Shown here piece by piece: positions 18 through 24,714 of a DNA stretch of 43,875 nucleotides. This DNA comes from Pseudomonadota bacterium (GTDB lineage: Bacteria; Bdellovibrionota_F; JAHFAK01; JBDREC01). Under the pieces are notes generated by a model. The model was not told the DNA's origin and did no database searches. It saw nothing but the letters and a program-made list of their open reading frames with translations. The stretch lies in contig JBDREC010000103.1 in NCBI GenBank assembly GCA_043820105.1, positions 79,405 to 123,279 on the forward strand, in the 5' to 3' direction. A program made the position numbers and the translations under genes. Position 1 is the stretch's first letter. The number at the start of each line of letters is the position of its first letter.

Positions 18-48
18 AGTCTAGCAGAGGGAGATGACAGGAAATGTC
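18..48 (-). promoter_or_regulatory. WYL-activator-type promoter (GAC-N7-GTC-N12-TAGACT), pointing left out of the window
   Basis: Minus strand reads GAC ATTTCCT GTC ATCTCCCTCTGC TAGACT; same spacing as six other copies. Confidence 0.7.
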
Positions 49-103
49 CAAAGGTGACAAAAAATATTCTATTTAAATTAATTATTAAAATATGTCCTGA
101 TTT

Positions 104-134
104 GTCATTTCCTGTCACATAAGTATGTTATAGT
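104..134 (+). promoter_or_regulatory. WYL-activator-type promoter (first half-site GTC instead of GAC)
   Basis: GTC ATTTCCT GTC ACATAAGTATGT TATAGT; divergent from the 18-48 copy. Confidence 0.65.
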
Positions 135-140
135 AAGACA

Positions 141-251
141 ATGAGAGAAATATTAATTGAAATAATAAAAAGCACATTAAGGTTGTGGATCCTGAGAATA
201 AAGATCTTCATCCTGGATATAAGGATCTTTATTTGTGAGCTTTTTAATTGA
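141..251 (+). CDS. Putative leaderless 36-aa hydrophobic peptide (MREILIEIIKSTLRLWILRIKIFILDIRIFICELFN)
   Basis: ATG lies 7 nt after the -10 hexamer, at the expected +1; internal 21-bp tandem repeat; below the ORF-track cutoff. Confidence 0.35.
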   Translation: MREILIEIIKSTLRLWILRIKIFILDIRIFICELFN

Positions 252-480
252 ATTTCAATTTTGTGACCCAGGTCACAGACTTGGCTTGAAAAAAATGATA
301 AAATTGTTTTGGGTTATGCTGTTTGAAAGCTGATAGCCTGCTGTTATTTAAGTAAAATAGTCTTTTCAGGGCATTCGCCAGATGCATTTGTGTGTTGATT
401 TTAATTTTCTTTTCAATTTGTTTTTCTGAAACTTCAAAAGCCAGTACCCATAACCCAAACACAACTATGGGGAGGCATCT

Positions 481-2928: not shown

Positions 2929-2943
2929 TAATTGTCAAATCAG

Positions 2944-2974
2944 GACATTTTCTGTCACAGAGTTATGTTAAAGT
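2944..2974 (+). promoter_or_regulatory. WYL-activator-type promoter of the FHA/kinase operon
   Basis: GAC ATTTTCT GTC ACAGAGTTATGT TAAAGT. Confidence 0.75.
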
Positions 2975-2981
2975 TAATTAA

Positions 2982-3069
2982 GCAGTAAGTTGTTTGCAGT
3001 AAGTTGTTTGCAGTAAGTTTTTAGACTTATCACTTACCACTTACAACTTACCACTTACCACTTACCACT
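2982..3069. repeat. 14-bp repeats (GCAGTAAGTTGTTT x~2.7) followed by six 7-bp ACTTACC-like units, partly complementary
   Basis: Read directly; GTAAGT in the left block pairs with ACTTAC in the right block. Confidence 0.85.
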
Positions 3070-3085
3070 AAACGGGGGGGGCGCC

Positions 3086-3385
3086 ATGAAACCAGCAAAC
3101 AATAAAGTCATAAAACTACAAAAATACTCCAAAAAAAAGAGCATATACGAAGCCCTTATAAAAGAGACTATTAATGGATTGGAAGCTTTAATCGACGAAT
3201 TTGACCATCTGGCCTTTAGCCTGGCTGTTAATAATAAATGGCAGGAATGGGATGAGGCACAACCTGTGGGCACCATTATTGACTATGATATGGAAATGCT
3301 GCTGCAAACCGGTGATCCAAAGGTGACCATGATTATGAAGCTAAGAAATAAAATGGTTGAAACCCTTAAAGCCCTTGAAGAGTAA
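3086..3385 (+). CDS. Hypothetical protein (99 aa), first gene of operon
   Basis: ORF with G-rich RBS, co-directional with downstream genes. Confidence 0.65.
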   Translation: MKPANNKVIKLQKYSKKKSIYEALIKETINGLEALIDEFDHLAFSLAVNNKWQEWDEAQPVGTIIDYDMEMLLQTGDPKVTMIMKLRNKMVETLKALEE

Positions 3386-3410
3386 ATAAAACAGGAGATT
3401 TGGATAAAAC

Positions 3411-5231
3411 ATGAGTATTCAAAGAAAAATATTTATTATCATTTTAATGTCCCTTGCTGGAATTTGCTTTTTAGTCTGTGCCCATTATTTCCTGAAAAAT
3501 CCTCAGGAAGAGCAAAAAGCAAAGCCTGTATATCTGGCCCCTGTTGATATAGATGCAGTAATTAAAGAGCTTTGCCAGGAGCTGGGTGCAAAGGCAAAAA
3601 ATGAACGCTTTGCAGGACCTGTGCTTGAGCTAAAGCATATTGAGGGTCCTGAAAAGGATGAATTTGTGCAAACTAAAAAGCCTCTGATCATGGCTTGTCT
3701 CGCGGGGAGTTTCAATAAGCAGATAGTAGCTTCTGACTCAGACAGGGAAAAGATAAAAAAACTGGTGGAGGAGCTGTTCAGCAAACAAAGCCTTTATAAA
3801 AACCTGAAGCTGGATCTGGGTACAGCTGAAGCTCCAAAATATGATATAAGCGGCAGATGGGAATGGCTTGTGAATAAAAAGGATGTGCAGCTTAGTATTA
3901 GAATCTCTAAAATAGGGATAACACCCGCATATATTGAGGCCTCAGGTATCTTCACTCATCCTGCTTTTATCAGGCAGGTAAATCTTGAGCTGGATAAGCA
4001 AAAGGCAGCGTATTTCAGCAAAAGAAGACTAACTGTTTATCTGGCATATGCTGATTGCGGGCTGCTTATTTTAATGTGGCTTTATTTATCGGCAATACTA
4101 GGCTTTCGGCACATACAAAGGAAGAACTTAAGCCAGACTTTGCCTGCGACCATGGGAAAGCTGGAAAACCTGATCAGAGGGGGCTACTATGTATCTGCTG
4201 GTAAACTTATAGAAAGCTGCCTTAACTACTTTCCCAATGAAACGGATCTGCTCAGTATAAAAGCCAGACTGGAAATTATAACAGAGGGCAGATTAAAAGA
4301 CGCTGAAAAGGCCTTTGTTAAAGCTAAAATATTTAAAACTTATGTGGCAAGCGGGCAAATCCTTGCACCAAAAGATCAGGAAGATCTGCTGCAATTACCG
4401 GGACCTGAGATGGAGCATATAAGAAATGATTATACTCTAAAGCTTCTGGAAATGCAGGAAGAGAATAATAATAAAGCAGCCGTTTTATATAAGGAAGCCC
4501 TGGAATTAATCAGCAGGGGAAAGCCAGAGGAGGCCATTGGTAAGCTTGGAACTGTAATTAAACTGAACGCAGAAGATGAAAGCCCTTTGTACCTGTTTGG
4601 AAAACTTATAAAGGCCCGAAGCCTTACCTGCCTGAAACTTGTGCCCTTAAAAGTTGGTAAAGAAGTTTGGCTTTTCAAAACTGACTGCCTTTACCTCGGA
4701 AGAGAAGACAGCGATATAATCATTGAACATCCCAAAATCAGCAGACAGCATTTAAGGATAAGCTTATTGGAAAAAAAAATAATAGCAGAGGATTTAGAAA
4801 GCACTAATTTTACCTATTTAAGGGGAGAAAAATTAAAACTGGCTGAAATAGAAGACGGAGATATTCTGGACTTAGCAGGCACTCACAGCTTTACTGTACA
4901 TATTGCAAAAGCAGGGCAAAAGGTTTCCAAAGCAACAATGGCAAACACTACAGTTGCAGAGATAAATGATCCTGCTGTAAAGGATCTATCAGAAAATGAT
5001 GGTTTATTGCAAGGAATGTTTCTGGAGGGAGAGGACCGGCATTATCTTTTGATAATAGATGAGGTGGGAGCAGATATTACTGCTGTGGGTATTTTATACA
5101 ATCAAAACCCCTCACATAAAATCGTAATAAGAGCTAATACCTTGATGCTCTGCCTTGGTGATAAGTACGAGCTGCTTTATCCCGGAGAGGTTATTGAATA
5201 TCAGGGTATCAAATATGAAGTGGAGGAATAA
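3411..5231 (+). CDS. Membrane protein with TPR-like helices and an FHA domain
   Basis: Two hydrophobic segments; FHA motifs LGR..ISRQHLRI..DLESTNFTYL. Confidence 0.8.
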   Translation: MSIQRKIFIIILMSLAGICFLVCAHYFLKNPQEEQKAKPVYLAPVDIDAVIKELCQELGAKAKNERFAGPVLELKHIEGPEKDEFVQTKKPLIMACLAGSFNKQIVASDSDREKIKKLVEELFSKQSLYKNLKLDLGTAEAPKYDISGRWEWLVNKKDVQLSIRISKIGITPAYIEASGIFTHPAFIRQVNLELDKQKAAYFSKRRLTVYLAYADCGLLILMWLYLSAILGFRHIQRKNLSQTLPATMGKLENLIRGGYYVSAGKLIESCLNYFPNETDLLSIKARLEIITEGRLKDAEKAFVKAKIFKTYVASGQILAPKDQEDLLQLPGPEMEHIRNDYTLKLLEMQEENNNKAAVLYKEALELISRGKPEEAIGKLGTVIKLNAEDESPLYLFGKLIKARSLTCLKLVPLKVGKEVWLFKTDCLYLGREDSDIIIEHPKISRQHLRISLLEKKIIAEDLESTNFTYLRGEKLKLAEIEDGDILDLAGTHSFTVHIAKAGQKVSKATMANTTVAEINDPAVKDLSENDGLLQGMFLEGEDRHYLLIIDEVGADITAVGILYNQNPSHKIVIRANTLMLCLGDKYELLYPGEVIEYQGIKYEVEE

Positions 5232-5234
5232 TAA

Positions 5235-6698
5235 ATGAAGCAATTTATTTTATTTATTTTAGTATGTCTTGCGCTAAATTCCTGCGGGCTTTTTATGCAC
5301 AAAAATACTGTAAAGGCTAATAGTCAAATAGAGGCTGCAGCAAGGAACAGCTATGAGCAGCAGCTTAGGGAAAATGAAGCTGCTATCAGTAAGCTGCAAA
5401 ATAAATATCCTGCACATTATTGGGGAGAAGGTATATCCAACATAGGTGCTGATTTAGGCGAAGCCAAAGAGCAGTCCAAGGTAAGAGCCAGAACAGATTT
5501 ATCAAGAACCTTAAAAGTGCAAATCAAAAGTGATCTGGTTGATATAATGGGAAAGTATCAGGATGATTATGTGGAGATTGTGGAACAAAAAGCAATAAGC
5601 TATACCAACGCTGTATTTGAAGGAGTAGAGGGAGAATGTTTTTATCCATATCCTGCGCTTAATAATATCACCTGTTTTTATTGGATTTCCATTGCAGCTT
5701 ATAAAGAAAAAGTCAGGAAGGATCTGGAAAAGAAAAAGAGTATGATTAAGGGCTCAATGCAAAATGGGAAAAAGGCGCTTTGGGACACTGATTATGTACT
5801 GGCTTTGACGGCCTTTGCTCAGGCAAAAAATCATCTGCTTAATTTTTTTGGAAATGTACCAATAATGGATGACAGTGATAGTGCTTCAAAAGCTGAAGAA
5901 CTTAGTTCGGTCATTGACGGCTATATTAATGAGATTCTGAGTGGTATTAATATTACAACCCTTGATCCCTCTGTTGCATATACCTCAGAGGGAAAGATAA
6001 ATAAGAAACCTTTAATTTATGCCCAATATGTTAAAAATAATGCTAAGCAGGCTTTGCCTAATTTACCCCTTAAAGCTGAAATTATTGAGGGAGAGGGTGA
6101 GATAGTGGACAGGCTCACAACAGGAATAAATGGGGAGACCTATGTGCTGATAAATTTAATTAACCCTGCTATCAAAAAAAGTGTAGTCCGCGTAAAAACA
6201 GATCTTGAAAAACTAGGCATCTCAGCTAAGGCAAGACCTGTTTCTGGCTGCGAAATTCTTTTATCAAAAGCAAGAACCGTTGCCTTATCAGTTGTTTTTG
6301 AAAATAGCAGTACTATTTTAGAAGATGTAAATATGTTTCAAAAAATAAAATCAGCCTCCTTAAAAAATAATTTAAACACTCTAAGTTTTACTATTAAGCA
6401 AAAGCAAATCACCAGCGAGGATAAAAATAAAGCCACTTTATTGAATGCTGATTACCTTTTAGCTGTTTTGTTTTCAGCAGACAGCTCGAAACTTCCAGAT
6501 TATGATATGTATGCTGCAAATGCAACTGTTACCATTGAAATGTATTCCCTTCCTGATGGCAGCCTGGTATTTAGTGAAACAGGCCCTGTTTCCAAGGGCT
6601 TTGGTACAAACAGGTCAGCCGCCGGGTGGGATGCCATTGGCAAAATAAAGGAGCACGTATTGAAACTTATAAACACGAAACTGGAGCAGTTAAGATGA
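5235..6698 (+). CDS. LPP20-like lipoprotein
   Basis: Lipobox LNSC; GEG...EAKEQSKVRARTDLSRTLKVQIKS resembles LPP20. Confidence 0.65.
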   Translation: MKQFILFILVCLALNSCGLFMHKNTVKANSQIEAAARNSYEQQLRENEAAISKLQNKYPAHYWGEGISNIGADLGEAKEQSKVRARTDLSRTLKVQIKSDLVDIMGKYQDDYVEIVEQKAISYTNAVFEGVEGECFYPYPALNNITCFYWISIAAYKEKVRKDLEKKKSMIKGSMQNGKKALWDTDYVLALTAFAQAKNHLLNFFGNVPIMDDSDSASKAEELSSVIDGYINEILSGINITTLDPSVAYTSEGKINKKPLIYAQYVKNNAKQALPNLPLKAEIIEGEGEIVDRLTTGINGETYVLINLINPAIKKSVVRVKTDLEKLGISAKARPVSGCEILLSKARTVALSVVFENSSTILEDVNMFQKIKSASLKNNLNTLSFTIKQKQITSEDKNKATLLNADYLLAVLFSADSSKLPDYDMYAANATVTIEMYSLPDGSLVFSETGPVSKGFGTNRSAAGWDAIGKIKEHVLKLINTKLEQLR

Positions 6699-8485
6699 AA
6701 TATTTTATTTTAATTGTGTTTTGCCTCTTCCTGGCGCCGCTTAGCATTTGGGCCAGCATAATTCTGGCAATATTGGGTGCGTGTATTATATCTGGTATTG
6801 AAGCAGAACAAAACAGTGAAAGAGTAATTTATAATAACAGTGAAGGAACTCCCATGATTGGCAACGATTATATTATAAGTGATGAAATGCTTATTAATGG
6901 TTTTCCGGATAAAATAGAAAGAGGTTTTGTTACTTTAGATCCGGACACTATTGCTTCAATAATTGCCTCTAATGAGTCTGCGGAATCTAAAAATATCACA
7001 GAAGAATTAAAAGAAGCAAACTTAGCATTCCATGTTTATAAAAATGATGTTTCCGGAAATAATGTTATTGTAAATGAACAGGTAAAACTAAGTTGCGATG
7101 AAATCGCTGAAATTGCCCAGAATAAAATATCTTCCAGAAAAACCTATGATTTTGCTGGAAACATTAGAGGCAAACATCCCAGGGACCTTGATGAGTACAT
7201 CCTGAATTATCTTGAGGCTTATGGTTTTTTATATCCACGCTACTTTGATAAGTTTATGGAGCTTTTACAGGCCGATGGCCATTATTGGAGCCCTGCTGAA
7301 ATTATTCAAAAGATTGAAAAAACTATAAAGGAAGCCGGTCCCTTGAATGACGCCTACTGCATGAAAAAGTATTACTTTAATCTTATTTGCAGACATGGGG
7401 ATTTTATGCTCTATAATTCCGGGCTGCTTATGATCCATAATATGAGACATCCGGAGCGAATGGTTGATCTGGTGGCTTCTGGTGAATTCCTGCAAAAGGA
7501 TATTAAAATAAAACTGGAGGATTTGTTTATAGATGGCAAGATAGCATTTATTACAAGTGCCGACAATGAGACTATGCTTGGAATTGCATATTTAAAGAAA
7601 AGAGTTCTTAAAGTAGCTATACCCGAAAGCAAGGAAACAAAGATCTCCAATATCCCTGAAGGCTGTACAAAACTTCTGGCTGATAAATATCAGCTGCTAA
7701 GTGAAATCGCCAGGGGAGGCATGGGACAAGTATTTGAAGGATACAATATTAAAAGAAAGCATAAGGTAGCTATTAAAAAATTAAAGGAAGAACTAAAGAT
7801 TTACAGAAGAGAAAGAGAACGTTTCATAAAAGAAGCAAAAATTATTTCCAGACTTAAGCATCCGGACATTGTAAAGCTTTATGAAATTATTGAAGAAGAC
7901 TATAATATTTATCTGGTTTTTGAACTGCTCAAAGGTCAGAACATTGAAGATATGATAAATAAGATGAGCAAGTTTCCTCTGCTGCAGGCGCTAAAGATAG
8001 CGTGCGATGTTTCCATGGCTCTGGCTTATGCCCATAAGTTCGGAATAATTCACAGGGATCTGAAACCTTCAAATATATTTTTTTGCGATGATGGAAAAAT
8101 AAAGGTCATGGATTTTGGAATAGCCAGAGAAGTCAAAGATTCTGTCTCCAGATTAACCGGAAATAATGATACTTCCGGAACCATGCAGTACATGTCCCCG
8201 GAACAAATCCTGGGAGCAAGAGATATTCGGGGCGATATATATGCTCTTGGAGTGACCTTATATGAAATGATCACAGGCAAAGTTCCTTTTCGTGGCGGAG
8301 ATGTTTATATTCAAAAAAAGGAAATGGCTTACATAAAGGCATCTGAAATAGACAGTTCTATTCCAAAAGAGGTTGATATAATAATTGAAAAATGCCTGCA
8401 GGCAGATCCCGAAAAAAGATATTCATCTTGCCTTGAATTATTCAGGGCCTTAAGGACTCTGCATAATATGTTAGATATAAATTGA
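6695..8485 (+). CDS. Membrane-anchored Hanks-type Ser/Thr protein kinase 1
   Basis: ARGGMGQV, VAIK, HRDLKPSN, DFG, SPE; start re-assigned to the ATGA overlap at 6695. Confidence 0.92.
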   Translation: MKYFILIVFCLFLAPLSIWASIILAILGACIISGIEAEQNSERVIYNNSEGTPMIGNDYIISDEMLINGFPDKIERGFVTLDPDTIASIIASNESAESKNITEELKEANLAFHVYKNDVSGNNVIVNEQVKLSCDEIAEIAQNKISSRKTYDFAGNIRGKHPRDLDEYILNYLEAYGFLYPRYFDKFMELLQADGHYWSPAEIIQKIEKTIKEAGPLNDAYCMKKYYFNLICRHGDFMLYNSGLLMIHNMRHPERMVDLVASGEFLQKDIKIKLEDLFIDGKIAFITSADNETMLGIAYLKKRVLKVAIPESKETKISNIPEGCTKLLADKYQLLSEIARGGMGQVFEGYNIKRKHKVAIKKLKEELKIYRRERERFIKEAKIISRLKHPDIVKLYEIIEEDYNIYLVFELLKGQNIEDMINKMSKFPLLQALKIACDVSMALAYAHKFGIIHRDLKPSNIFFCDDGKIKVMDFGIAREVKDSVSRLTGNNDTSGTMQYMSPEQILGARDIRGDIYALGVTLYEMITGKVPFRGGDVYIQKKEMAYIKASEIDSSIPKEVDIIIEKCLQADPEKRYSSCLELFRALRTLHNMLDIN

Positions 8486-8585
8486 CAGAAAGCCTTTAAA
8501 AAGTGCTGTGCCTTAACAAATATAAGAGGACCCAAAATGGTTTCAGGATAAATAACCAAGCAATTTAATAAATGCAGAGGGGAAT

Positions 8586-10457
8586 ATGAAAAAGGCATAT
8601 TATAAAAACAGAGCCTTCTTTAAATTGGGTAATAAAGGCTCAGTTGACTATTCAGGCCTTATTGGAGGGATAATATTATATTTTATTATAGGTATAATAG
8701 TAGCTCATTACAGTGTTCTGATTGCCTTTTTAATTTTAATCTTTGGAGTGATAAACCTGTTAAAGGAAACCATAGATGTTGAGACCAAGATTGTGCCTGT
8801 AGGAAGCGAAAGCAAGGTTACCTCGAAGGTCAATAAACTTGAGTATAATATTACTGATAAATTAACCCGCAAACACTTTCCTGACAGGCTGGAAAGAGGC
8901 TTTGTTACCCTTGATCCTGCAACTATATTTGAATTGGTGTCAGCACAAAGCCCTAAGGCAAAAACCATACAGGAAGATTTAAAAGACTCAGAGATGCCCT
9001 TCAGGGTTTATGGTGATCACATTACAGGGAACAGGGTAATAGTACATGATAAGATTGAGCTAAGCATGCAGGAAGTCAGCAATATTGCTGCTAGTAAGGC
9101 TTCAGCTGTAAAAACATACTGTTTTGCAGATAATATATATTTTAATCAGCCAGAAAGCATAGAAGAGTATCTGGCAAACTTTCTGGATTATTATGGCTTT
9201 TTATATCCAAAACATCTCAGTGAATTTATGCTGATCATCAAGGGAGTAGGCATTGCTTTGTCAAAAGCAGAGGTAGAGGAATTAATAGAAAAAATCCTCA
9301 GAGAAGCAGGGCCTTTGCATGAACCGGCCTGCCAGAAGGATTATTATACAAATTTATTTTTCAGGTACGGGAATGCAATGATTTACAGATTGGGGCTAAT
9401 GCTGCTCTACAATTTCAGGTATGCCAATGGTGGGCCAGAATTTGCACTTTATGCAGAATATTATATGAAACAGATTGATAAGGAGCTGGATGCTGCATTT
9501 CTGTCAGGTGATATAGCCTATGTTACCTCAGCAGACGATGAAAGCGTATTGGGAGTTGAGCATTTGCGCGGAAAGGGAATACGCAAAGCGGGTGTAGCCA
9601 GCAGAGAAACCATGCTTTCTAATTTTCCAGAAGGCACAAGCAAATTGCTCAAGTCCAGATATCTGCTTATTAGGGAAATTGGACGTGGAGGGATGGGAAT
9701 TGTATACGAAGCCCTTGATGAAAAAACAGGCAATAAAGTTGCTATCAAGAAGATGAAAGAAGAACTTAAAATCAGCAAAAGGGAAAAACAACGTTTTCTG
9801 AAGGAAGCGGCCATTGTTGCAAAGCTGCATCATGACAATATTGTTGAATTATATGACCTGATAGAGGATGCTGATAATATTTATCTTGTTTTTGAGTACA
9901 TTAAGGGGATTACAGTTGAAGATATTCTGGAAAAAAAAGGGAAACTCAGATACAGAGATGCTCTTATATTGGGCCTGGAAATATGCAAGGCCCTTGATTA
10001 TGCGCACGGGCAGCATATAGTGCACCGTGATCTTAAACCATCCAATATTCTGGTGAATAAGGAAAAAAAGATAAAGATAATGGATTTTGGCATTGCCAGA
10101 GAAGCCAAGGATAGTATCACCAGATTAACAGGATCAGTGGACACTTCAGGGACTATAGTATATATGGCGCCCGAGCAGATCCTGGGAAAATATGATTACA
10201 GAAGTGATATCTATTCACTGGGTGTGACTTTATATGAAATGCTAACGGGCGAGGTCCCTTTTCGTGGCGGGGATGTTTATATTCAAAAAAAGGAAATGGC
10301 TTATACAGAAGCATCTGAAGCGGATAGGAGTATTCCACGAAAGATAGACACGATAATTGCAAAATGTCTGCAGGTGGATCCTGACAAAAGATATACCTCT
10401 TGCCTTGAATTATATTATTCATTGAAGTATATTTATGAGAGTATGGATTTAATTTGA
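8586..10457 (+). CDS. Membrane-anchored Hanks-type Ser/Thr protein kinase 2 (paralog)
   Basis: GRGGMGIVY, VAIK, HRDLKPSN, DFG, APE; shares the pre-kinase domain with kinase 1. Confidence 0.92.
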   Translation: MKKAYYKNRAFFKLGNKGSVDYSGLIGGIILYFIIGIIVAHYSVLIAFLILIFGVINLLKETIDVETKIVPVGSESKVTSKVNKLEYNITDKLTRKHFPDRLERGFVTLDPATIFELVSAQSPKAKTIQEDLKDSEMPFRVYGDHITGNRVIVHDKIELSMQEVSNIAASKASAVKTYCFADNIYFNQPESIEEYLANFLDYYGFLYPKHLSEFMLIIKGVGIALSKAEVEELIEKILREAGPLHEPACQKDYYTNLFFRYGNAMIYRLGLMLLYNFRYANGGPEFALYAEYYMKQIDKELDAAFLSGDIAYVTSADDESVLGVEHLRGKGIRKAGVASRETMLSNFPEGTSKLLKSRYLLIREIGRGGMGIVYEALDEKTGNKVAIKKMKEELKISKREKQRFLKEAAIVAKLHHDNIVELYDLIEDADNIYLVFEYIKGITVEDILEKKGKLRYRDALILGLEICKALDYAHGQHIVHRDLKPSNILVNKEKKIKIMDFGIAREAKDSITRLTGSVDTSGTIVYMAPEQILGKYDYRSDIYSLGVTLYEMLTGEVPFRGGDVYIQKKEMAYTEASEADRSIPRKIDTIIAKCLQVDPDKRYTSCLELYYSLKYIYESMDLI

Positions 10458-10984
10458 GGATAAAAATGATAAAGAGAAATAATTTTATATTTATTACAAT
10501 AACTATATGTTTATTGTTTTCAGGTGCTTTGGTAGCTAGTGCCTATAAGGTATCTAAAATTATAGATGGTGACACCATAGAATGCACAGATGGCAACATC
10601 AATTTCCGGGTCCGCTTAGCCGGCATCGACGCCCCTGAGAAAAAGACCTTTTGGGGCAGAAGAGCTAAGATGTATTTAGAAGAGCTCTTGCAAGGCAAAT
10701 CTGTGGATATTAAGCAGTATCTGATTGGGCCTTATAATAGAATTATTGGGGATGTTTTAGTTGGAAGTGAAAATGCCAGTTACAGGATTCTTAAAGACGG
10801 CTATGCTGAGTATTACAGGGAAGGGTGTATTGATTATGAGCTGCAGAAGAATAAGAAGGTCTATAAGTACGATATCCTGCCTTACATAAAACTTGAACAG
10901 GAAGCTAGGGCTAAGAAGCTTAATATATGGCTGTCAAGTGACTATGTGAGTCCCTGTAAATACAGGAAGCAGAATAAGAAATGA
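10454..10984 (+). CDS. Secreted thermonuclease (SNase family)
   Basis: IIDGDT, RVRLAGIDAPE; signal peptide; ATG at 10466 is the likelier start. Confidence 0.9.
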   Translation: MRIKMIKRNNFIFITITICLLFSGALVASAYKVSKIIDGDTIECTDGNINFRVRLAGIDAPEKKTFWGRRAKMYLEELLQGKSVDIKQYLIGPYNRIIGDVLVGSENASYRILKDGYAEYYREGCIDYELQKNKKVYKYDILPYIKLEQEARAKKLNIWLSSDYVSPCKYRKQNKK

Positions 10985-11134
10985 TACTTTTGCGCCATTT
11001 TCAAAAATGGTCATTACATTGCCTTTTAATTCTAAAATATAATCATATATTTCCGGGACAGGTATTGTAACAAAAATATGAAATATTTAAATTGAAAGGG
11101 TTATGAATTTAAAAAGAGGATTATTGGAAGTACT

Positions 11135-12370
11135 ATGAAAATAATTGTGCATAAAGGTTCGAAAGAGATCGGAGGCACCTGCATCCAATTGTCAACTATC
11201 AACACAACTATACTGCTTGATGCCGGTTATCCTTTGGCAGAAGGAAGTGTTCCCGTTGATATAAAGAAGATAAAAACAGATGCAATATTAATCAGTCATC
11301 CGCATCAGGATCATTATGGATTAATCGAGCAACTTGGAAATGATACTAAAATTTGGATAGGCAAGACGGCTGTCGATCTTATAAATGCTTCAAGATTATT
11401 TCTTGGCAAAAAATCTTTAGAGTTCAATTTTAATTATATCGAAAAGTGGAAACCTTTCAATATTGGTGATTTTATAATAACCCCATATTTAATGGATCAC
11501 TCCTCAGTTGATGCTTATGCATTTCTTGTTGAAGCTGAAGGCAAAAAACTATTTTATAGCGGAGATTTCAGAGCGCATGGCAGGAAGAAGACACTGTTTG
11601 AGAAATTTATAAAGAATCCCCCAAAAGATATTGATGTTTTGTTCATGGAAGGAACAATGATGCAGCGGTCAAATGAAAGATTTCCCGATGAGAATGCAGT
11701 TGAAAAGAAAATATTCGACACCATAAAAGATCAAAAAAACATATCCTTCATTTCCATGTCATCACAGAACATTGACAGGATCGCTGCTGCATACAGAGCT
11801 TGTAAAAGATCAGGTAAAGTTTTTGTTGTTGATGCTTATACTGGCTGGGTTCTTGAAAAGATTAAAAATATATCTAGTAGCATGCCTGATATTGATTGGA
11901 AGGAGGTTAGGGTTTATTTACTTCCTAAGCATTATGAAGGAATTAAAAATAATAAAGAAATATTTGCCAAATACTCGGATAAAATATTTAAAAATAGAAT
12001 ATTTAAGGAAGAATTGTATAATGAACCTTCAAAATATTTGATGTTTTTAAAATCATGTAAGGATGAATTTATAAATAACTTTAAGAAAGATCCAAAACCA
12101 AACCTCATCTATTCACAATGGGAAGGCTATATTAAGCGAGATGACCAAAGCAAATCCTATAAGCAATTGAAGAAAATTATAGCTGAAGATAAAGTCAATT
12201 ACATCTACGCCCACACAAGTGGTCATGCGGTCTTAGAAGATTTAAAGACTTTTGCTAGAGCCCTGAATCCTAAAATGCTTGTGCCTATTCATACGGAATA
12301 TGGGATTGATTTTGAGGATTATTTTGATAATGTTTGTATATTAGAGGATAATGAAATACTAGAACGATGA
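11135..12370 (+). CDS. MBL-fold beta-CASP (RNase J-like) nuclease
   Basis: EIGG, SHPHQDH, YSGDF, HTSGH, PIH motifs. Confidence 0.88.
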   Translation: MKIIVHKGSKEIGGTCIQLSTINTTILLDAGYPLAEGSVPVDIKKIKTDAILISHPHQDHYGLIEQLGNDTKIWIGKTAVDLINASRLFLGKKSLEFNFNYIEKWKPFNIGDFIITPYLMDHSSVDAYAFLVEAEGKKLFYSGDFRAHGRKKTLFEKFIKNPPKDIDVLFMEGTMMQRSNERFPDENAVEKKIFDTIKDQKNISFISMSSQNIDRIAAAYRACKRSGKVFVVDAYTGWVLEKIKNISSSMPDIDWKEVRVYLLPKHYEGIKNNKEIFAKYSDKIFKNRIFKEELYNEPSKYLMFLKSCKDEFINNFKKDPKPNLIYSQWEGYIKRDDQSKSYKQLKKIIAEDKVNYIYAHTSGHAVLEDLKTFARALNPKMLVPIHTEYGIDFEDYFDNVCILEDNEILER

Positions 12371-12415
12371 ATTAATTTGTTGGAAAAATTATAATCAAAT
12401 AAAAGGAGTCTTAGC

Positions 12416-13141
12416 TTGAACAGTAATATTGAAAAAATCTTTTATAATCTTGATAAATGGAGAAATTTTCCTGGTTATCAACTTGAAAGAAGGGTAGATA
12501 TATTTTTCTCAATTTATCTTGAAGATATTTTCATGGATATTACAGGTAAGAATCCAATAGTGATACCAGAATTCCCTTTAAGAAAAGGTACAATAAAAAA
12601 TAAGATGAGTTCTAAATTTGCAGAAAAAATTGAAGATAGGCACCATAATAATTCATTTAAAATGGATTATTTGATTATTTCTAAAAATCTTAACAAAATA
12701 TTATTTGTAGAACTAAAAACTGATAATAATTCAATCAGAAAGGATCAGCTCGATTATCTAATTGCAGGGGTGAAAACTGATTTTAAAGAACTTATTGATG
12801 GAGTGTTTGAGCTCAGGGATAATTCTGATAAAAAAAGAAAGTATGATTATTTACTTAAATATTTAGATGAGGAAAAACTTTTTGATGTAAAAGAAAAAAA
12901 AGTGAATGATCATATTTTCAAATATCCGTTTGAGAAAAAGATAACATTTATTATCCCAAAGGATAAAGAATCTTTGATCCGAAAATTTAATAATGAAAGT
13001 GAGAAGAATACCTATAAATTGGACGAAGATTATATAATTACATTTGATGATATTATAAAAAAAATCAGTAAATATAATGACAAATTATCTATTGAGTTCA
13101 GAAAAAGTCTAGAGGACTGGAAAAAAGATGCAGGTTCATAG
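12416..13141 (+). CDS. Probable PD-(D/E)xK nuclease
   Basis: IPEFP...MDYL...FVELKTD...Q..Y pattern. Confidence 0.6.
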   Translation: MNSNIEKIFYNLDKWRNFPGYQLERRVDIFFSIYLEDIFMDITGKNPIVIPEFPLRKGTIKNKMSSKFAEKIEDRHHNNSFKMDYLIISKNLNKILFVELKTDNNSIRKDQLDYLIAGVKTDFKELIDGVFELRDNSDKKRKYDYLLKYLDEEKLFDVKEKKVNDHIFKYPFEKKITFIIPKDKESLIRKFNNESEKNTYKLDEDYIITFDDIIKKISKYNDKLSIEFRKSLEDWKKDAGS

Positions 13142-13230
13142 TTGAAAAAAGTAGTAGCAGATTTGATTTGGAGGCAAGTTAACCAATAGATATTTTAGAT
13201 TATTCAATTTTAAATTATAAAGGAGACAAA

Positions 13231-13758
13231 TTGAAGATTTACCAAGAAATTAGAGATGAATTTCAAATGAATTCCTACAAACCTCTTGATGGGTATTATT
13301 CTTATATTGCTTATAATCAAGATATATTAATAGCTGTTGGTGAAAGTAAGGGAAATAGAGTTAATTGTCTAATCAATCCATCGACTCCAGGAAAACACTC
13401 AAAATACGGTATTGCCAAAATGGCTGTGGCTCTAACAGGAATTAGTAATACCATTTTATTTATTGAACATGCTAATAAAAAAGAAGCTCAGAATAGTGAA
13501 AGAAATATTAAAGCTAAAATAAGAAATTATTTTAACATCTCAGACAACAGAAAAGGTGGAACTTGGTACAAAGGAGAAATTGACAATAAAATTGTTCAAT
13601 TCAAAATGATTTTAGAATTGTGTGTTAAAAATTCAATTACTATTAATCCTTTTGAAAAAGATGTTTTAGAAATGATATGCTATGATGGAGATACTTTCAA
13701 TAATGTATATCAGGTAAATAATACGGTTACTGAGCTTATTAATAAAATAATTAGATAA
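13231..13758 (+). CDS. Hypothetical protein, weak GIY-YIG-like pattern
   Basis: RBS AGGAG; YIAY...AVGES..NR...E; similarity weak. Confidence 0.5.
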   Translation: MKIYQEIRDEFQMNSYKPLDGYYSYIAYNQDILIAVGESKGNRVNCLINPSTPGKHSKYGIAKMAVALTGISNTILFIEHANKKEAQNSERNIKAKIRNYFNISDNRKGGTWYKGEIDNKIVQFKMILELCVKNSITINPFEKDVLEMICYDGDTFNNVYQVNNTVTELINKIIR

Positions 13759-13816
13759 GAAGTTACTTGAGATCAAAATATAGATAAATTTTATAAATAA
13801 TTTAGGAGAAAATGAA

Positions 13817-14179
13817 ATGCCTCACTTACCAAAACTTCTCGATCCGGCAATTTCAAAAGATGATTTTATTAAAAAACTTAAAGATTGGTGCGCTGGCAAA
13901 GGTCTGGATCCAGACGAATATGTAGGAGATTTTGAAAATTACGGCAGAGTGACATGGATAAGGATTCACTTAGTTGCTAATATTTACCTCTTCTTAAATT
14001 CAGATACAAAGCGAAAGGGAGTAGAAAAATTCTTAAAAGTTTATGAAAATGATTGGTATGTAGTTGAAAATACAAGGGGGAATTACAATAAAGTTGCATT
14101 TGGTGCAAATAAAGAGGTGATTGAGAATTTTTATTTATATACATGTGATGTGTATAATAAAGAAACAAAGTTGGATTAA
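13817..14179 (+). CDS. Hypothetical protein
   Basis: ORF with RBS AGGAG. Confidence 0.6.
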   Translation: MPHLPKLLDPAISKDDFIKKLKDWCAGKGLDPDEYVGDFENYGRVTWIRIHLVANIYLFLNSDTKRKGVEKFLKVYENDWYVVENTRGNYNKVAFGANKEVIENFYLYTCDVYNKETKLD

Positions 14180-14274
14180 ATATTAATATAGAAATATTAT
14201 TATATATTATTTCATTTAAAATTTGTCTAAGATATTATTAATCTTTATCAACTAAATCAATATTGAGGTGCTAA

Positions 14275-15288
14275 ATGTCAGCTTCAGCTGAAAGATTTTT
14301 GAGTCTAATTTTAAAACTTAAAAATTCAAGAGTTGGTTATTCCCTTGAGCAACTATCTTCCAATTATCAATGTAGTGAAAAAACAATTAGACGTTACCTT
14401 ACAGCCATCGGGGATGTTGGCTTTGACCTAAATAAAATAAAGAATGATGAAGGGACCATTTGTTGGTTTATCGATAGGAAAAAATTTGAGGATGTTCCGA
14501 TCTCTTTTACTAAAGATGAATTAAGTTCCTTATATTTGGCTACTGATTATTTCAGGGGAAGTGTTTTTTCCAAAAGCATGGGATCTGCCTTTGATAAAAT
14601 TAAAAATAATCTTACTGACAAGCAACGGGAATATGTTGAAGAGTTAGGAGAACTTTTGTATACATCCTCTAATCCCGGAATAGATTACAGTAAATCTTAT
14701 AACAAGATTGAAGATATAAAAGAAGCAATCATTAACAAGAAAAAGCTGCGGATAAAATATAAATCACACTCAGATGAGGCATATATTAATGAGTCCCATA
14801 TTGATTCAAGACCCAAATTTAGAATTATAGATCCATTTCAAATCTATACTCATGATAACATCCTTTACCTTGTCGCAAATTGTAATGAAAGAAAAGCAAA
14901 AAGAACCTTTGCAATCCACAGGATTATAAGTTGTGAAATTCAGGACCAAACCTTTAAGGTTGATAAAAATTTCAGTCTTGCTGATTATCTCGCTGAAGGT
15001 TTCAATTCCTATAGGGGTGAAGAAGAATCTATAAAATATAAAATATGGTTTGATAAAACAGTTGCAGCTTATGTAAAGGACAGGAAATGGCACAGAACAC
15101 AGAAGGAAAAGGACCTTAAAAACAGAGATGTAATAATAACTTTCAAATCGCGTGGAAAAAAGGCAGTTAAAAGATGGGTAATGGGTTACGGTGATAAGGC
15201 AAAAATTCTTGAACCAAAAGAGATAGCAACTGAAATTAAGGACGAAATTTCAAATATCCTCAAATTATATGGCAAGGATTCATCTTAA
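14275..15288 (+). CDS. HTH-WYL-WCX transcriptional regulator (PafB/DriD/YafY-like)
   Basis: N-terminal wHTH (SEKTIRRYL); WYL domain (RIIDP..LYLVANC..RTFAIHRI); WCX (WVMGYGDKAKILEP). Confidence 0.92.
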   Translation: MSASAERFLSLILKLKNSRVGYSLEQLSSNYQCSEKTIRRYLTAIGDVGFDLNKIKNDEGTICWFIDRKKFEDVPISFTKDELSSLYLATDYFRGSVFSKSMGSAFDKIKNNLTDKQREYVEELGELLYTSSNPGIDYSKSYNKIEDIKEAIINKKKLRIKYKSHSDEAYINESHIDSRPKFRIIDPFQIYTHDNILYLVANCNERKAKRTFAIHRIISCEIQDQTFKVDKNFSLADYLAEGFNSYRGEEESIKYKIWFDKTVAAYVKDRKWHRTQKEKDLKNRDVIITFKSRGKKAVKRWVMGYGDKAKILEPKEIATEIKDEISNILKLYGKDSS

Positions 15289-15397: not shown

Positions 15398-15428
15398 GAC
15401 AACATGTGTCACTTTTTAATGATATACT
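15398..15428 (+). promoter_or_regulatory. WYL-activator-type promoter directly downstream of the WYL gene
   Basis: GAC AACATGT GTC ACTTTTTAATGA TATACT. Confidence 0.8.
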
Positions 15429-17254: not shown

Positions 17255-17257
17255 ACT

Positions 17258-17956: not shown

Positions 17957-17994
17957 AAAGGGCAGAAAAAAATTAATAATAACTAAATTAAGAG

Positions 17995-18546: not shown

Positions 18547-18562
18547 GATTTGGAGGGATAAT

Positions 18563-18823
18563 ATGGAAAACATTTTGATTGTACTTGCTATCACGATCCC
18601 AATTTCCTTTGCGATCTACATGGGAATAAAGCATGCTCCCAATATGAAAAATCTTTCGGATGATGAAAGGGTACAGTTATTGCAGATGTTTAAAGACTCA
18701 CAAATGCAAGGAATAGAAAAAGCTAAACTTGATGAATTATACAGGACCAGGAGAATTTTAGAGAAGGACAGGATTGAAAATTATACCAGAAATATTGGGA
18801 ATAATAATAATTTGGGTAAATAA
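18563..18823 (+). CDS. Small single-TM membrane protein
   Basis: RBS GGAGG; N-terminal hydrophobic helix. Confidence 0.65.
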   Translation: MENILIVLAITIPISFAIYMGIKHAPNMKNLSDDERVQLLQMFKDSQMQGIEKAKLDELYRTRRILEKDRIENYTRNIGNNNNLGK

Positions 18824-18846
18824 TATGGGGGGAAGGATAAATTATT

Positions 18847-19305: not shown

Positions 19306-19449
19306 AGATTCACCTTTTGCCTGATTGGAGAAAATCAGCATATCATATTTAAGTGATCATGCAAGCTGGAAAAAACAAGTGTAGCATTTAATATCTACAC
19401 TCTGAGTATTGTTTATTTGTAGCAACCGGTTGAGATTGAGCCATGCTAT

Positions 19450-19983: not shown

Positions 19984-20023
19984 GCCTTTGAGCTCACTTA
20001 ATTAATTTAATTAGATTTAATAT

Positions 20024-20054
20024 ATTATATATCATGAATGTGACAGATAAGGTC
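20024..20054 (-). promoter_or_regulatory. WYL-activator-type promoter of the DnaB-like gene
   Basis: Minus strand GAC CTTATCT GTC ACATTCATGATA TATAAT. Confidence 0.8.
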
Positions 20055-20071
20055 AAAGGCATTAATGTATT

Positions 20072-20515: not shown

Positions 20516-21043
20516 AAATTTATTCCTTTTAATATTTGCTCATAAAAAGTCGGATCTTTAGTTTTTAATTCCAGCAATCCTGATTCAGTTAAAATAATTG
20601 TTTGAATATTCATTTTTCGTTTCAATTTACCAAGACTCGCTTCAATCTGTTCTTTGAGATTGTTGCTAATGATTAATAAATCCAAATCACTATCAATAAG
20701 GTTTTCGCCTCTGGAGGAACTGCCAAATAGTATAATTTTGCTTGCCAATGGCGCAAGTTTTTTTACTATTGGTTGGATAGAATTAATAGTTTTTAAAACT
20801 TTTAATTGTTTAATTACCGAAATTTTATGATTTAAAGTATAGAAATGCATCATTCCTTTTTTTTTGTAAAAACAAATAATTTGCCTTTATAAGTTCCCTT
20901 AACGCATAATTTGTGCCTGATTTGCTTATATTTACTTTTGTTTGTATTTCTTTTTCTGTAAATTCCTGCCCAGGATAATCAAGCATATAAAATAAAACCT
21001 TTTGAGAATTTGTTGCAATTAATAAATTAGTTAATCCATCCAT
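20500..21043 (-). pseudogene. HTH-minimal nucleotidyltransferase (MNT) fusion split by one extra A in an A9 run
   Basis: HTH ORF 20825-21043 and MNT ORF 20500-20853 (LFGSSSRG..SDLDL) join in frame if the T9 run at 20857-20865 were T8. Confidence 0.7.
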
Positions 21044-21058
21044 AATTTTGTACAGCTG

Positions 21059-21111
21059 CCTATTATATTGGACAAGTGTCCATTATAATGGAAAGACTCT
21101 TTCGTTGTCAA
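21059..21111 (-). promoter_or_regulatory. Sigma-70 promoter TTGACA-N18-TATAAT of the MNT-HEPN operon, with palindromic operators
   Basis: Perfect palindrome TCCATTATAATGGA (21079-21092) over the -10; related copy at 21059-21072. Confidence 0.7.
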
Positions 21112-21168
21112 GTGTTTTGTGTTAAATTGGTTTGTTTTTATAAATGGATTTTTTTAGCGAGCATATAA

Positions 21169-21199
21169 GACACAAAATGTCCCTGGCTCCTGTTATAAT
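21169..21199 (+). promoter_or_regulatory. WYL-activator-type promoter
   Basis: GAC ACAAAAT GTC CCTGGCTCCTGT TATAAT. Confidence 0.75.
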
Positions 21200-21227
21200 A
21201 AAGATAAACAACAAGAGGAGCAGCATC

Positions 21228-21884
21228 ATGGCAGCATATCCAATAACCGATCTTATATTGCAAGCAATGCAGGATAAGCAACTTAGCAAAAAAGACCTGG
21301 TGCAGGCTATGAATTATAAGAATATCGCCAAAGGTTTAAGAAGGCTTGATCGTTTCCTTGAGTGCAAAAGATTTTATAAGGGCATAATTGAAAAACTGCC
21401 TCAGATACTTGGCCTTGATGAAAGTTCGTTTAAAGCTGAAATAGCGCGCACACAGGCTCTTATTGCTAAAGAAAAGGAAGATAAAGAAAGACAAGCCTTT
21501 GTGCCGCATATTATTGTAAAGCATGAGCGGACTGGGCCCTCCTTGATTTTTGTGGTAGCTATAACAGGAGTTGAAAGATTCAAGTATATTGTTCTGCCAG
21601 CTAACATTGCAGAGCTTTCTGAAGCGGAGCAATTTGACATAATTCGTGAAACATTAAAGGCTCACTACATAAAAAACATGATTGAGAATAAAGCTATGCA
21701 ACTTTTTGGTGATATCACAGGATACTTCTATCGACAAACCTATGACAGAACTATCTTATTTTCAGTCAAAGGAGAAGTGCTGAATGCGCATTTAGGAAAG
21801 AAGACGCTGCCTAAAGCCTCTTTGCATCTTGAAGGTGACCAAAGGGATATTTCCTTTAATTTTAAAAACGCTAACCGAAATTAA
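21228..21884 (+). CDS. Hypothetical protein with an N-terminal XRE-like HTH
   Basis: LSKKDLVQAMNYKNIAKGLRRL; ATG 21228 follows RBS GAGGAG. Confidence 0.6.
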   Translation: MAAYPITDLILQAMQDKQLSKKDLVQAMNYKNIAKGLRRLDRFLECKRFYKGIIEKLPQILGLDESSFKAEIARTQALIAKEKEDKERQAFVPHIIVKHERTGPSLIFVVAITGVERFKYIVLPANIAELSEAEQFDIIRETLKAHYIKNMIENKAMQLFGDITGYFYRQTYDRTILFSVKGEVLNAHLGKKTLPKASLHLEGDQRDISFNFKNANRN

Positions 21885-21902
21885 TATTATCCTTTTTCTT
21901 TA

Positions 21903-22751
21903 TTACTTAGCCTCATAACACTTTTGATAAACAACATTAATATCTACCCAGATATTCCCAACACTACAAACATCCCTTTTATCAATCTCCTGATGGGAAA
22001 TATAATCATGCATAAGGTAGCAAAAGGACAGCCTGGAAAGCGGATGCTTTTTGGTTATAATTTTATAATCATTCCATTCTATGTTACTGCCCAATAGTCC
22101 TTCATCCTTTATTCGAGCCCAGGTTTGCTCATCCTTATCAAGCGTAGGAATCGTTTTGGCGGTAACTAAAAAATTATCAGAATCGTCGCGATAAAGCAGA
22201 TGATTTTCCCTTAACATATAATCAATGCTAATATCTATTTCATAATCTTCCAGCCAGTCCTTTTTATCTTGAATTCTTTTGTTTAGTTTTTTTATAAGAT
22301 CTTTTTGCTCTTTTATTAAAGCAGTTTCAATTTCCATTAGTTTTTTATTAAGCTCTTTTAAAAATAATATTTCTTTTTTCGAAAACTGGTGTGGCTTATC
22401 TATAAGCTTCATATCATTTTTAAGCTCTTTCCAGGTCATTTCAGGCTTGTGCCAGAAATACATAAAGGGCATTCTGTATTGTTTGATACTATCCAATAGG
22501 CAGCGACGGTCTTTTTTGTTGAGAAAGCATATCCCGTCAATAATTTTTACAGCATCCTCATTTATGTCCAACTTAACAGTAAAGCCTTCATCAACCTTTT
22601 TTCTAAAGATCTTTAGTCTGGGAGACAGCTCATATTCCTTACCTGGCTGCGTAAGGTGCAGATTGACATTGACTCCAAACTTATGATTTTCTGGGCCTAT
22701 AATAATAAATTTTAAGTTCTTGTTTTTTGCTTTGTTCATTTTAATCACCAT
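21903..22751 (-). CDS. Hypothetical protein
   Basis: Long ORF; no family recognised. Confidence 0.6.
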   Translation of the reverse strand: MVIKMNKAKNKNLKFIIIGPENHKFGVNVNLHLTQPGKEYELSPRLKIFRKKVDEGFTVKLDINEDAVKIIDGICFLNKKDRRCLLDSIKQYRMPFMYFWHKPEMTWKELKNDMKLIDKPHQFSKKEILFLKELNKKLMEIETALIKEQKDLIKKLNKRIQDKKDWLEDYEIDISIDYMLRENHLLYRDDSDNFLVTAKTIPTLDKDEQTWARIKDEGLLGSNIEWNDYKIITKKHPLSRLSFCYLMHDYISHQEIDKRDVCSVGNIWVDINVVYQKCYEAK

Positions 22752-22771
22752 AAAATAATTTCAATTCATTA

Positions 22772-23329
22772 CTATAAAACCACCGGCAAAAAACATGCAA
22801 AATTCTCCACCTTATCCATATTTAAAACCTTCTTGCCAGGAACTATTTTCGCAGCAGTGAAGCCTTTATCCAGGCCACCTGACAAACAAAGAAAATTTTC
22901 CTTTGTGAAATGCTTATTGATCCAGTCAAGAAAGGCTTTAAAAGTGTGTTCCTTGAATAATTCTTGCCTTGAGGTATAATATCTCTTATGTTCAGGAGTA
23001 CATTGATCGCAGTAATATTCACCTATGCTGCTTCTTTTTTCATGGATATCAAAATCCATTATTATATCCCAAAAAATATTATCATGATAAACTCTGACTT
23101 CAAACCCTCCAGATTTGCTGACCTGAACAGTAATTTTGGGAGTGATACCATGCAATTTAAAAAGAAAATAATTCCATCGCTGCCTAAAGATTATTGGCTG
23201 ATATTTAAAATTATGCCGATTTTCCTTAAGCCAACTTACAAAGGTTCTTTGCATATAATATTTTCTCAAGGGATTCCTCAAATATTTAAAAAATAATTTT
23301 AAAAACTCCATAACATAGAACAGTGACAA
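22772..23329 (-). CDS. Hypothetical protein with CxxC; true start probably downstream of the ORF-track start
   Basis: YYCDQC; the annotated start overlaps a GAC-N7-GTC palindrome. Confidence 0.55.
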   Translation of the reverse strand: MSLFYVMEFLKLFFKYLRNPLRKYYMQRTFVSWLKENRHNFKYQPIIFRQRWNYFLFKLHGITPKITVQVSKSGGFEVRVYHDNIFWDIIMDFDIHEKRSSIGEYYCDQCTPEHKRYYTSRQELFKEHTFKAFLDWINKHFTKENFLCLSGGLDKGFTAAKIVPGKKVLNMDKVENFACFLPVVL

Positions 23330-23407
23330 TTAAGGTCACTTTCGTATATACCATTATTATAACATATACTCTGGTCATTAAGAATCCTGTGTTTTATTAA
23401 GTAAATT

Positions 23408-23438
23408 GACCTAAGCTGACACAAAGGCATGCTAGACT
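23408..23438 (+). promoter_or_regulatory. WYL-activator-type promoter of the DnaA-like gene (second half-site GAC)
   Basis: GAC CTAAGCT GAC ACAAAGGCATGC TAGACT. Confidence 0.6.
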
Positions 23439-24712: not shown

Positions 24713-24714
24713 GA

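Follow-up and report, generated by a model that had tools for sequence, protein, structure and literature searches.

The DNA described here is a window of 43,875 nucleotides (nt) at the right end of a 123-kb contig, JBDREC010000103.1 (C103; the window is C103:79405–123279), in the draft genome of a Pseudomonadota bacterium assigned to Bdellovibrionota_F (3.81 Mb, 32% G+C, 93% complete). The host is phylogenetically isolated: among 400 other genomes, two share its order and one its class, and the rest share its domain only. Two features of the window are our subject. One is the gene at 14275–15288 (+) for P0001, a 337-residue regulator of the WYL type; the other is a short element, GAC-N7-GTC-N12-TAnnnT, that recurs in front of the genes surrounding it and that an earlier note on this DNA had proposed to be the target of such a regulator. 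These genes form an anti-phage defence island which extends leftward out of the window into the adjoining 20 kb (L001), where two Schlafen/AlbA_2 proteins, an AIPR/AbiU protein, a DnaE-like protein and a DUF2779 protein are encoded, together with a second WYL-WCX protein (P0002) and a 75-residue HTH_11 protein (P0005).

The earlier note listed seven copies of the element, and a pattern search of the window returns all seven at the coordinates and on the strands it gave. Five of them are exact. The first, 18–48(−), faces left, toward the gene for P0005 (L001 19759–19986, −), a stand-alone HTH_11 winged helix, and the open reading frame (ORF) that follows it, which encodes 126 amino acids (aa) rich in Gly, Ser, Asn and Cys with no known family (L001 19233–19613, −). 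Site 2944–2974(+) precedes an operon (3086–10984, +) for a 99-aa protein, a 606-aa FHA protein, a 487-aa protein, two Ser/Thr kinases that match the PADLOC models PD-T4-6/mad6, and an SNase-domain protein. Site 15398–15428(+) lies 110 nt after the stop codon of P0001, co-directional with it, and faces a run of Sel1-repeat, RadC/JAB, 232-aa, 183-aa and 86-aa genes that ends at 18823 (+). Site 20024–20054(−) stands before a 177-aa paralog of the DnaB C-terminal domain (19983–19450, −) and a 164-aa ORF, and site 21169–21199(+) before an ORF of 218 aa that probably starts at 21228 (+). The two remaining listed sites, each with one mismatch, are 104–134(+), with GTC for GAC, before an SBBP beta-propeller lipoprotein gene (481–2928, +), and 23408–23438(+), with GAC for GTC, before a 251-aa DnaA-type AAA+ paralog (23470–24225, +). 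In each of these two the mismatch exchanges A and T at the central base of a half-site. The weaker copies that the note mentions are present too: 23307–23337(−), with one mismatch and the hexamer TATGGA, faces ORFs of 160 and 282 aa (23254–21903, −), and 11057–11087(+), with two mismatches (GTA and AATATT), heads a same-strand run (11135–15288, +) of a metallo-beta-lactamase-fold gene, three unknown genes and, last, the P0001 gene. A third GTC had been reported for three of the copies, and all three have it: site 18 carries a further half-site upstream, as do site 104 (at 94–96) and site 2944 (at 2934–2936), in each case N7 from the distal half-site, which is 10 base pairs (bp) centre to centre.

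Further sites lie to the left of the window. A strong one, C103:68103–68136(−), stands before a single ORF of 37 aa (L001 8540–8653, −) with a twin-arginine-like signal-peptide start, which may be what is left of a longer gene or may encode a small secreted peptide. A weak site at C103:71661 precedes the DnaE-like gene, and near C103:75740 (−) a variant, GTC-N7-GAC-N12-TATAAT, precedes the DUF2779 gene. Within the window there is also a sixth exact match, absent from the earlier note, at 10922–10952(−); it lies antisense in the SNase gene, scores below 9 bits and is probably a chance match, not a promoter.

The excess of the element over shuffled sequence, for which the note had called, is confirmed. 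The exact pattern occurs six times in the window as against 0.14 expected, and 14 matches are found, as against 4.1 expected, when one mismatch is allowed; none of 100 shuffles reached either count. Fifteen exact matches are present in the whole genome, the window holding six of them. A weight matrix built from eight window sites recovered the site at C103:68103–68136(−), 11 kb to the left of the window, at 30.2 bits, and a second matrix was built from the nine sites after this one had joined. With the nine-site matrix all nine score 27–39 bits (10.0–30.2 when each is left out in turn), the best score elsewhere in the genome being 20.0, and all nine lie within C103:68.1–102.8 kb. The statement that the sites are upstream of gene starts, and not inside genes, holds for each of the 11 sites examined (nine strong and two weak): every one is intergenic and faces a gene on its own strand, in a region of 39.4 kb that is 86% coding. 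The hexamer is 19–111 nt from the start codon in ten of the 11, and 346 nt from it at site 104. The geometry is equally rigid. When the relaxed pattern G[AT]C-N7-G[AT]C-Nx-TAnnnT was scanned with x from 6 to 18, the island gave nine matches at x = 12 and 0–7 at the other spacings, so that the fixed 12-nt interval reported earlier is the top count; when the distance separating the half-sites was varied from 3 to 11, nine matches fell at a gap of 7 and 0–2 at any other. A chance origin of the motif is excluded.

The regulon is local to the island. In the rest of the genome the same spacing scan shows no peak (41 matches at x = 12, in a range of 15–41), and the recA promoter, at which the earlier note had suggested looking, carries no site upstream of the gene (on contig C19). 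A genome-wide damage regulon is thus ruled out by the lack of any motif excess outside the island and by recA, which was the sole gene checked individually. Two of the best-scoring matches elsewhere in the genome, C85:11649 and C88:50509, are within genes. The best of the outside matches, C57:1630–1663(−), is exact (20 bits), faces a 105-aa ORF 27 nt away and is divergent from a gene for a Fic-domain protein; situated on a 4.4-kb contig, it is indistinguishable from chance. The LexA DNA-binding domain (PF01726) was not found in this 93%-complete draft, in which RecA is present.

With regard to the internal structure of the element, the proximal half-site is the best conserved part (TGTCAC, with TGACAC in one site) and the distal half-site is looser (GGACA, TGACC, TGCCC or TGTCA). 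Eight of the nine strong sites have a TG one base before the hexamer, that is, an extended –10, a trait not recorded in the earlier note; it is kept in the weak copy at 11057. A –35 was sought as TTGACA at spacers of 16–18 nt and none of the 11 sites matches it at more than three of six positions. By contrast, a perfect canonical promoter (TTGACA, 18 nt, TATAAT; 12 of 12 positions) is found at 21082–21111(−), before a toxin-antitoxin-like operon of helix-turn-helix (HTH), nucleotidyltransferase and HEPN genes (−). Ordinary promoters of this organism thus possess a –35 and are read by its main sigma factor, and the motif promoters form a distinct class that lacks the –35. If the hexamer is taken as –12 to –7, the palindrome occupies approximately –37 to –25, with the conserved GTC at –27 to –25; the midpoint of the palindrome precedes the hexamer's first base by about 19 nt. 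Neither half-site can itself be a disguised –35: no conserved hexamer occurs 16–18 nt beyond TGTCA, and a distal TTGACC would have a spacer of 21 nt. Judged from the sequence, the repeated element is probably a composite promoter, in which a palindrome able to bind a dimer stands 12 nt upstream of a housekeeping-type –10 and replaces the –35.

The palindrome of site 21169 doubles as a one-mismatch site on the minus strand (21151–21181, hexamer TAAAAA), approximately 60–90 bp upstream of the canonical promoter of the HEPN operon, and might influence both directions. The leaders of the HTH_11 and SBBP lipoprotein genes (window –14 region and 465–483) share their last 14 bases, including the ribosome-binding site and ATG: gggaggcatctatg.

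P0001 has the architecture that had been claimed for the gene at 14275. Pfam identifies its WYL and WCX domains, and the AlphaFold model (mean predicted local distance difference test score, pLDDT, 91.6) follows DriD of Caulobacter crescentus in the order of its elements: a winged HTH, a three-helix bundle, the WYL sandwich and a WCX domain. Searched alone, P0001 matches DriD chains over residues 7–324 (E = 1e-5) and PafC and PafB weakly, and up to E = 1 it retrieves no chain of BrxR or CapW. A profile of the P0001 family matches PafBC (1.4e-46) and DriD (9e-43) over the full length, as well as PafC (6e-28) and PafB (2e-23); in BrxR and CapW it matches about 70 residues of the WYL domain only (2.5e-10 to 4e-6). 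Structural comparison with Foldseek gives the same ranking: DriD chains come first (E = 8e-20; template modelling (TM) scores 0.61–0.63), PafBC next, and CapW and BrxR have E of approximately 1e-7 to 1e-6 with TM scores of 0.28–0.35. P0001 is therefore closest to the activators DriD and PafBC and not to the repressors BrxR and CapW. In its recognition helix, K36 and R40 lie opposite the base-reading R37 and R41 of DriD; R40 is invariant in an alignment of 60 family members, and the consensus at position 36 is Arg. Comparable base-reading pairs are described for PafB (R46/R50) and SiwR (R38/R42), besides DriD R37/R41 (PMC8635444, PMC10693628). R210, nearly invariant in the family, and R216, which is invariant, flank the strand equivalent to W-Y-L and align with DriD arginines. 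Arginines around this strand are reported to contact single-stranded DNA or to be needed for activation in CapW and SiwR (PMC11662680, PMC10693628), and by analogy P0001 may likewise bind single-stranded DNA. No motif is found directly upstream of the P0001 gene itself, the weak copy at 11057 alone heading its same-strand run. This arrangement fits a regulator whose synthesis is constitutive and whose switching is allosteric.

Evidence that the motif and this kind of protein belong together comes from other genomes. Close relatives of P0001 are few: a word-indexed protein search gave two at E ≤ 1e-10, on contigs of less than 2 kb, a search of genome contigs with P0001 found no close orthologous island, and the two genomes of the same order have no match to the family. 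The family as a whole is large, with 6,320 representatives at E ≤ 0.001, many of them full-length at approximately 30% identity. The 60-member alignment was used to search 401 genomes, 127 of which have a match at E ≤ 1e-20, and the 29 best foreign loci, each comprising the gene and about 1.5 kb on either side (109 kb in total) and not chosen by any DNA feature, were scanned for the motif. The relaxed pattern G[AT]C-N7-G[AT]C-N12-TAnnnT occurs 15 times, in 14 loci, as against 2.8 expected, and the exact one eight times as against 0.84. It is the composite that is enriched; the palindrome alone is not (22 versus 21.8 expected). The spacing scans repeat those of the island, with 15 matches at x = 12 versus 0–3 elsewhere and 15 at a gap of 7 versus 0–5. 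The 14 motif-bearing genomes represent 11 families and cannot all be counted as independent, for several cas6 loci are visibly akin to one another.

The position of these sites is also constrained. Thirteen of the 15 are oriented like the WYL gene and located –2 to +430 nt beyond its 3′ end; of the remaining two, one diverges from its 5′ end and the other has a different placement. Site 15398 of the island, 110 nt after the P0001 stop codon and co-directional, has the same layout. The earlier association of the motif with a WYL protein is thus borne out, since the relatives carry the same composite, at the same spacing, beside their own WYL genes, and the sequence comparison supports the view that the motif belongs to the P0001 family by a link independent of the host genome. 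When ten of the genes downstream of the relatives' sites were submitted to Pfam, six proved to be Cas6, two Cas3, one DUF2779/Cas4-like and one HIRAN; the other four loci have short ORFs only (43–96 aa). Among the targets in the island, too, is a DUF2779 gene. The relatives' promoters never match the –35 at more than three of six positions and have the TG extension in three of 15 cases; they look weak by themselves, which fits a dependence on an activator. Extension of 20 of the relatives' loci to 11–17 kb (303 kb in all) gave 18 matches versus 6.7 expected, with at most two per locus, and the approximately ten sites of the present island are accordingly exceptional among the loci examined.

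What the earlier note stated of the PafBC and DriD sites agrees with the published accounts. For DriD, the activator of an SOS-independent damage response, the binding site is given as ATACGAC(X)7GTCGTAT, with a GAC-N7-GTC core, and is described as overlapping the place of a –35, its distance to the –10 being constant, in promoters without a –35 (PMC13004042). An 'optimised –35' oligonucleotide for didA, in which TTGACA replaces positions 3–8 of the palindrome (PMC13004042), would place the –10 approximately 12 nt after the GTC, assuming a spacer of 17 nt. DriD resembles P0001 in full-length homology, in having the closest fold and in domain order, and its promoters resemble those of the island in having the palindromic core where the –35 would be. 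It differs in its longer half-site (ATACGAC), in its Arg37 where P0001 has Lys, in an identity to P0001 of only about 20%, and in its scattered targets (didA, bapE, recJ and dnaG), which are not gathered in one island. PafBC of mycobacteria acts by sigma adaptation at a –26 element, in promoters described as lacking a –35, with the PafB HTH reading two guanines of the GTC between –23 and –28; the consensus, tGTCgg(N10)tA(N3)T, is GTC-N12-TAnnnT (PMC8635444) and hence has the identical register to the island motif. PafBC differs in being a heterodimer, encoded by two adjacent paralogs, which reads one half-site and controls recA and a genome-wide damage regulon; in the present genome the WYL gene stands alone, the palindrome is two-sided and no site precedes recA. 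SiwR of Mycobacterium smegmatis, a WYL activator, is reported to bind as a homodimer to an imperfect palindrome in the –26 region and to turn on the operon beside its own gene (PMC10693628); it has one target operon, of dinB-like genes, as against about ten here. DdaA of Moraxellaceae is described as a WYL activator of damage-response and anti-phage genes, including those for Cas and restriction-modification proteins, through CGWCA-N5-TGWCG (PMC12392091). This site contains the G[AT]C-N7-G[AT]C core, and the two listed sites of the window with one mismatch differ exactly at its W position. The DdaA motif, in contrast to that of the island, lies approximately 50 bp upstream of the start site, an arrangement stated to differ from that of PafBC (PMC12392091), and it serves a genome-wide regulon that replaces the SOS system, where here no excess is seen outside the island.

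It is on this basis that we favour the interpretation in which a DriD-like activator drives an island-wide local regulon, and to which we would give a probability of about two in three. We infer that P0001 in particular binds the motif, that the sign of regulation is positive and that the ligand is a nucleic acid. P0001, probably as a homodimer (as the palindrome, DriD and SiwR suggest), would bind the palindrome at –37 to –25 and, by analogy with DriD, PafBC and SiwR, would act within the initiation complex to bring the housekeeping holoenzyme of RNA polymerase to promoters that have only a –10. The WYL domain probably senses nucleic acid, for example single-stranded DNA arising from damage or phage replication, and this signal would make P0001 competent to bind or to activate. 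The outcome would be one switch for some 10–12 transcription units of a defence island of approximately 35 kb (C103:68–103 kb): on the left the 37-aa ORF, the DnaE-like gene (weak site), the DUF2779 gene and the HTH_11 gene with its Gly/Ser/Asn-rich ORF; in the middle the SBBP lipoprotein gene, the FHA/kinase/SNase operon and the metallo-beta-lactamase run with the WYL gene (weak site); and on the right the Sel1/RadC/JAB run, the DnaB C-terminal-domain paralog, the 218-aa ORF, the pair of 160-aa and 282-aa ORFs and the DnaA-type paralog.

Several observations weigh against this interpretation. Fifteen of the 29 relatives' loci have no match to the pattern, and P0001 has Lys36 where the family consensus and DriD carry the first base-reading Arg. 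The TG extension of eight of the nine strong island sites is of concern because an extended –10 can work without a –35, so that a protein bound between –37 and –25 could repress. The defence-linked WYL regulators BrxR and CapW are reported to be repressors (PMC9122601, PMC11662680), and Sll7009, which is encoded at a CRISPR-Cas locus and is the only cas-linked WYL regulator found with genetic data, is reported from its knockout to regulate negatively (PMC10212523). P0002 (WYL-WCX) and P0005 (HTH_11) are two other candidate binders encoded in the island. A search for sequencing runs containing this sequence listed no RNA run, and just two DNA runs in which few of its words occur.

The alternative that survives best, which we nevertheless regard as unlikely, keeps the same binder and reverses the sign: the WYL protein would be a repressor, or a dual switch, on self-active extended –10 promoters, from which single-stranded DNA would release it, as is reported for CapW (PMC11662680) and as happens with BrxR. 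The genomic setting is compatible with this, in that BrxR, CapW and Sll7009 are, like P0001 and its relatives, encoded beside defence systems, and Sll7009 is at a CRISPR-Cas locus as are many of the relatives, which adjoin cas6 and cas3 genes. The similarity of P0001 to BrxR and CapW is, however, confined to the WYL domain, where that to DriD and PafBC extends over the full length, and the folds also favour DriD. The BrxR operator is described as 11-bp inverted repeats with a 5-bp gap, situated after the –10 (PMC9122601), unlike the 3-bp cores, 7 nt apart and upstream of the –10, of the island motif. A rigid 12-nt register across distant genomes is expected of a protein that works in a complex with polymerase and is unneeded for a roadblock, and the relatives' sites, with few TG extensions and no –35, would offer little promoter activity to repress.

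The motif could also be read by P0002, by P0005 or by a mixed WYL pair comparable to the PafB/PafC heterodimer; this we consider improbable. Both P0002 and P0005 have R-x3-R in the likely recognition helix, as does DriD with R37/R41, the P0005 gene is itself behind a motif promoter, and the distal half-site comes in two flavours (GGACA-type before five units and TGACC/TGCCC-type before five others) that could reflect several binders. Yet P0001 is the one candidate whose alignment to DriD runs through the winged HTH, and the position of the motif is conserved right after genes of the P0001 family, in full-length matches that include the HTH. The foreign matches of P0002 cover its WYL-WCX half only and are the C-terminal halves of the same genes that match the P0001 family, so that no separate P0002 family could be set apart; P0005 has no significant similarity to P0001 or P0002; and P0001 and P0002 are encoded 16 kb apart, unlike the adjacent pafB and pafC. 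P0002 has 356 aa (L001 18068–19138, +; C103:77472–78542), its gene overlapping the end of a Schlafen/AlbA_2-HATPase_c_4-HTH gene; a paralog with 59% identity is found at the start of contig C52 (C52:27–1085), and the N-terminal 150 residues of P0002 are almost without counterparts among the 400 other genomes that were searched. It is possible that P0005 is an extra regulator in the circuit. It is very improbable that the element is an alternative-sigma promoter, or that no regulator is involved and it is a dispersed repeat or a product of chance. Promoters of alternative sigma factors also look like two blocks at a fixed spacing, but here a housekeeping-type –10 (TAnnnT with the TG extension) forms the downstream block, and the upstream block is palindromic, its spacing being that known from WYL dimers. 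The sites cannot be aligned by their flanks and hence are not copies of a repeat, and the counts and spacing scans exclude chance.

Not every unit of the island has a site. The AIPR/AbiU gene, the pair formed by the Schlafen-HTH gene and P0002, and the HEPN operon with its canonical promoter have none. On the right, the DnaA-type paralog is followed on the same strand by a MADS/Dnd-like restriction-modification cluster (24524–32513, +), and transcription from the paralog possibly reads on into it. The cluster encodes a mad1-like HTH_17 protein, a 909-aa type I-like methyltransferase, a specificity-subunit/mad5-like protein, a DndD/PbeC-like SMC ATPase and a DndE-HerA fusion that resembles the C-terminus of DndH and mad8. 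Two kinds of gene occur both in the motif-controlled part of the window and outside it: SNase-domain genes (10454–10984 inside, 38888–39433 outside) and SBBP beta-propeller genes (481–2928 inside, 32886–36671 outside), the outer copies adjoining genes for a PEGA-domain protein and a pilin-like protein. Heptamer arrays (GTAAGTT-type, then ACTTAC[CA] units, which could pair into long hairpins) occupy 2985–3070 and fill the 5′ leader of the FHA-kinase operon directly after site 2944; the recA leader contains them too (C19:25341–25399). At least 93 clusters of five or more units per 120 nt are scattered across the genome, and they are therefore a dispersed short tandem repeat and not a feature of the island.

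Some of the presumed targets are shortened copies of replication proteins. The DnaE-like protein (806 aa; L001 12307–14727, +) is 59% identical to residues 11–805 of the 1169-aa housekeeping copy and lacks its C-terminal third; the 177-aa DnaB paralog corresponds to the ATPase part (37% identity to the housekeeping copy), and the 251-aa DnaA paralog to the AAA+ part (33%). Full-length housekeeping genes for DnaE, DnaB and DnaA are on contigs C105, C28 and C33, respectively. Each of the truncated paralogs is behind a motif site of the TGACC flavour. It is tempting, if rather speculative and in our judgement doubtful, to suppose that a WYL activator of the type that serves a single cas operon became the master switch of an island, and that the truncated replisome copies are inducible poisons or decoys by which damage or phage would trigger an arrest of replication.

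WYL regulators beside immune systems have mostly been described as local repressors of one operon, and WYL activators are known from DNA-damage regulons. If our interpretation is correct, the island links both kinds, with activator-type promoters in the PafBC/DriD register that accompany cas genes and other defence genes across many unrelated genomes. What appears to be new, on the evidence of the sequences, is the attachment of an activator-type WYL promoter architecture to defence genes and its multiplication into an island-wide regulon; no earlier description was found in open-access papers and preprints. The promoter type would have been multiplied to approximately ten copies in this organism, letting the whole island fire together, and the island is probably switched on as a unit. 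The pattern G[AT]C-N7-G[AT]C, 12 nt, TAnnnT would then provide a rule for predicting inducible defence genes from sequence, and it flags as probably co-induced the unannotated genes of the island, among which are ten target proteins that gave no match in Pfam, NCBIfam or PADLOC.

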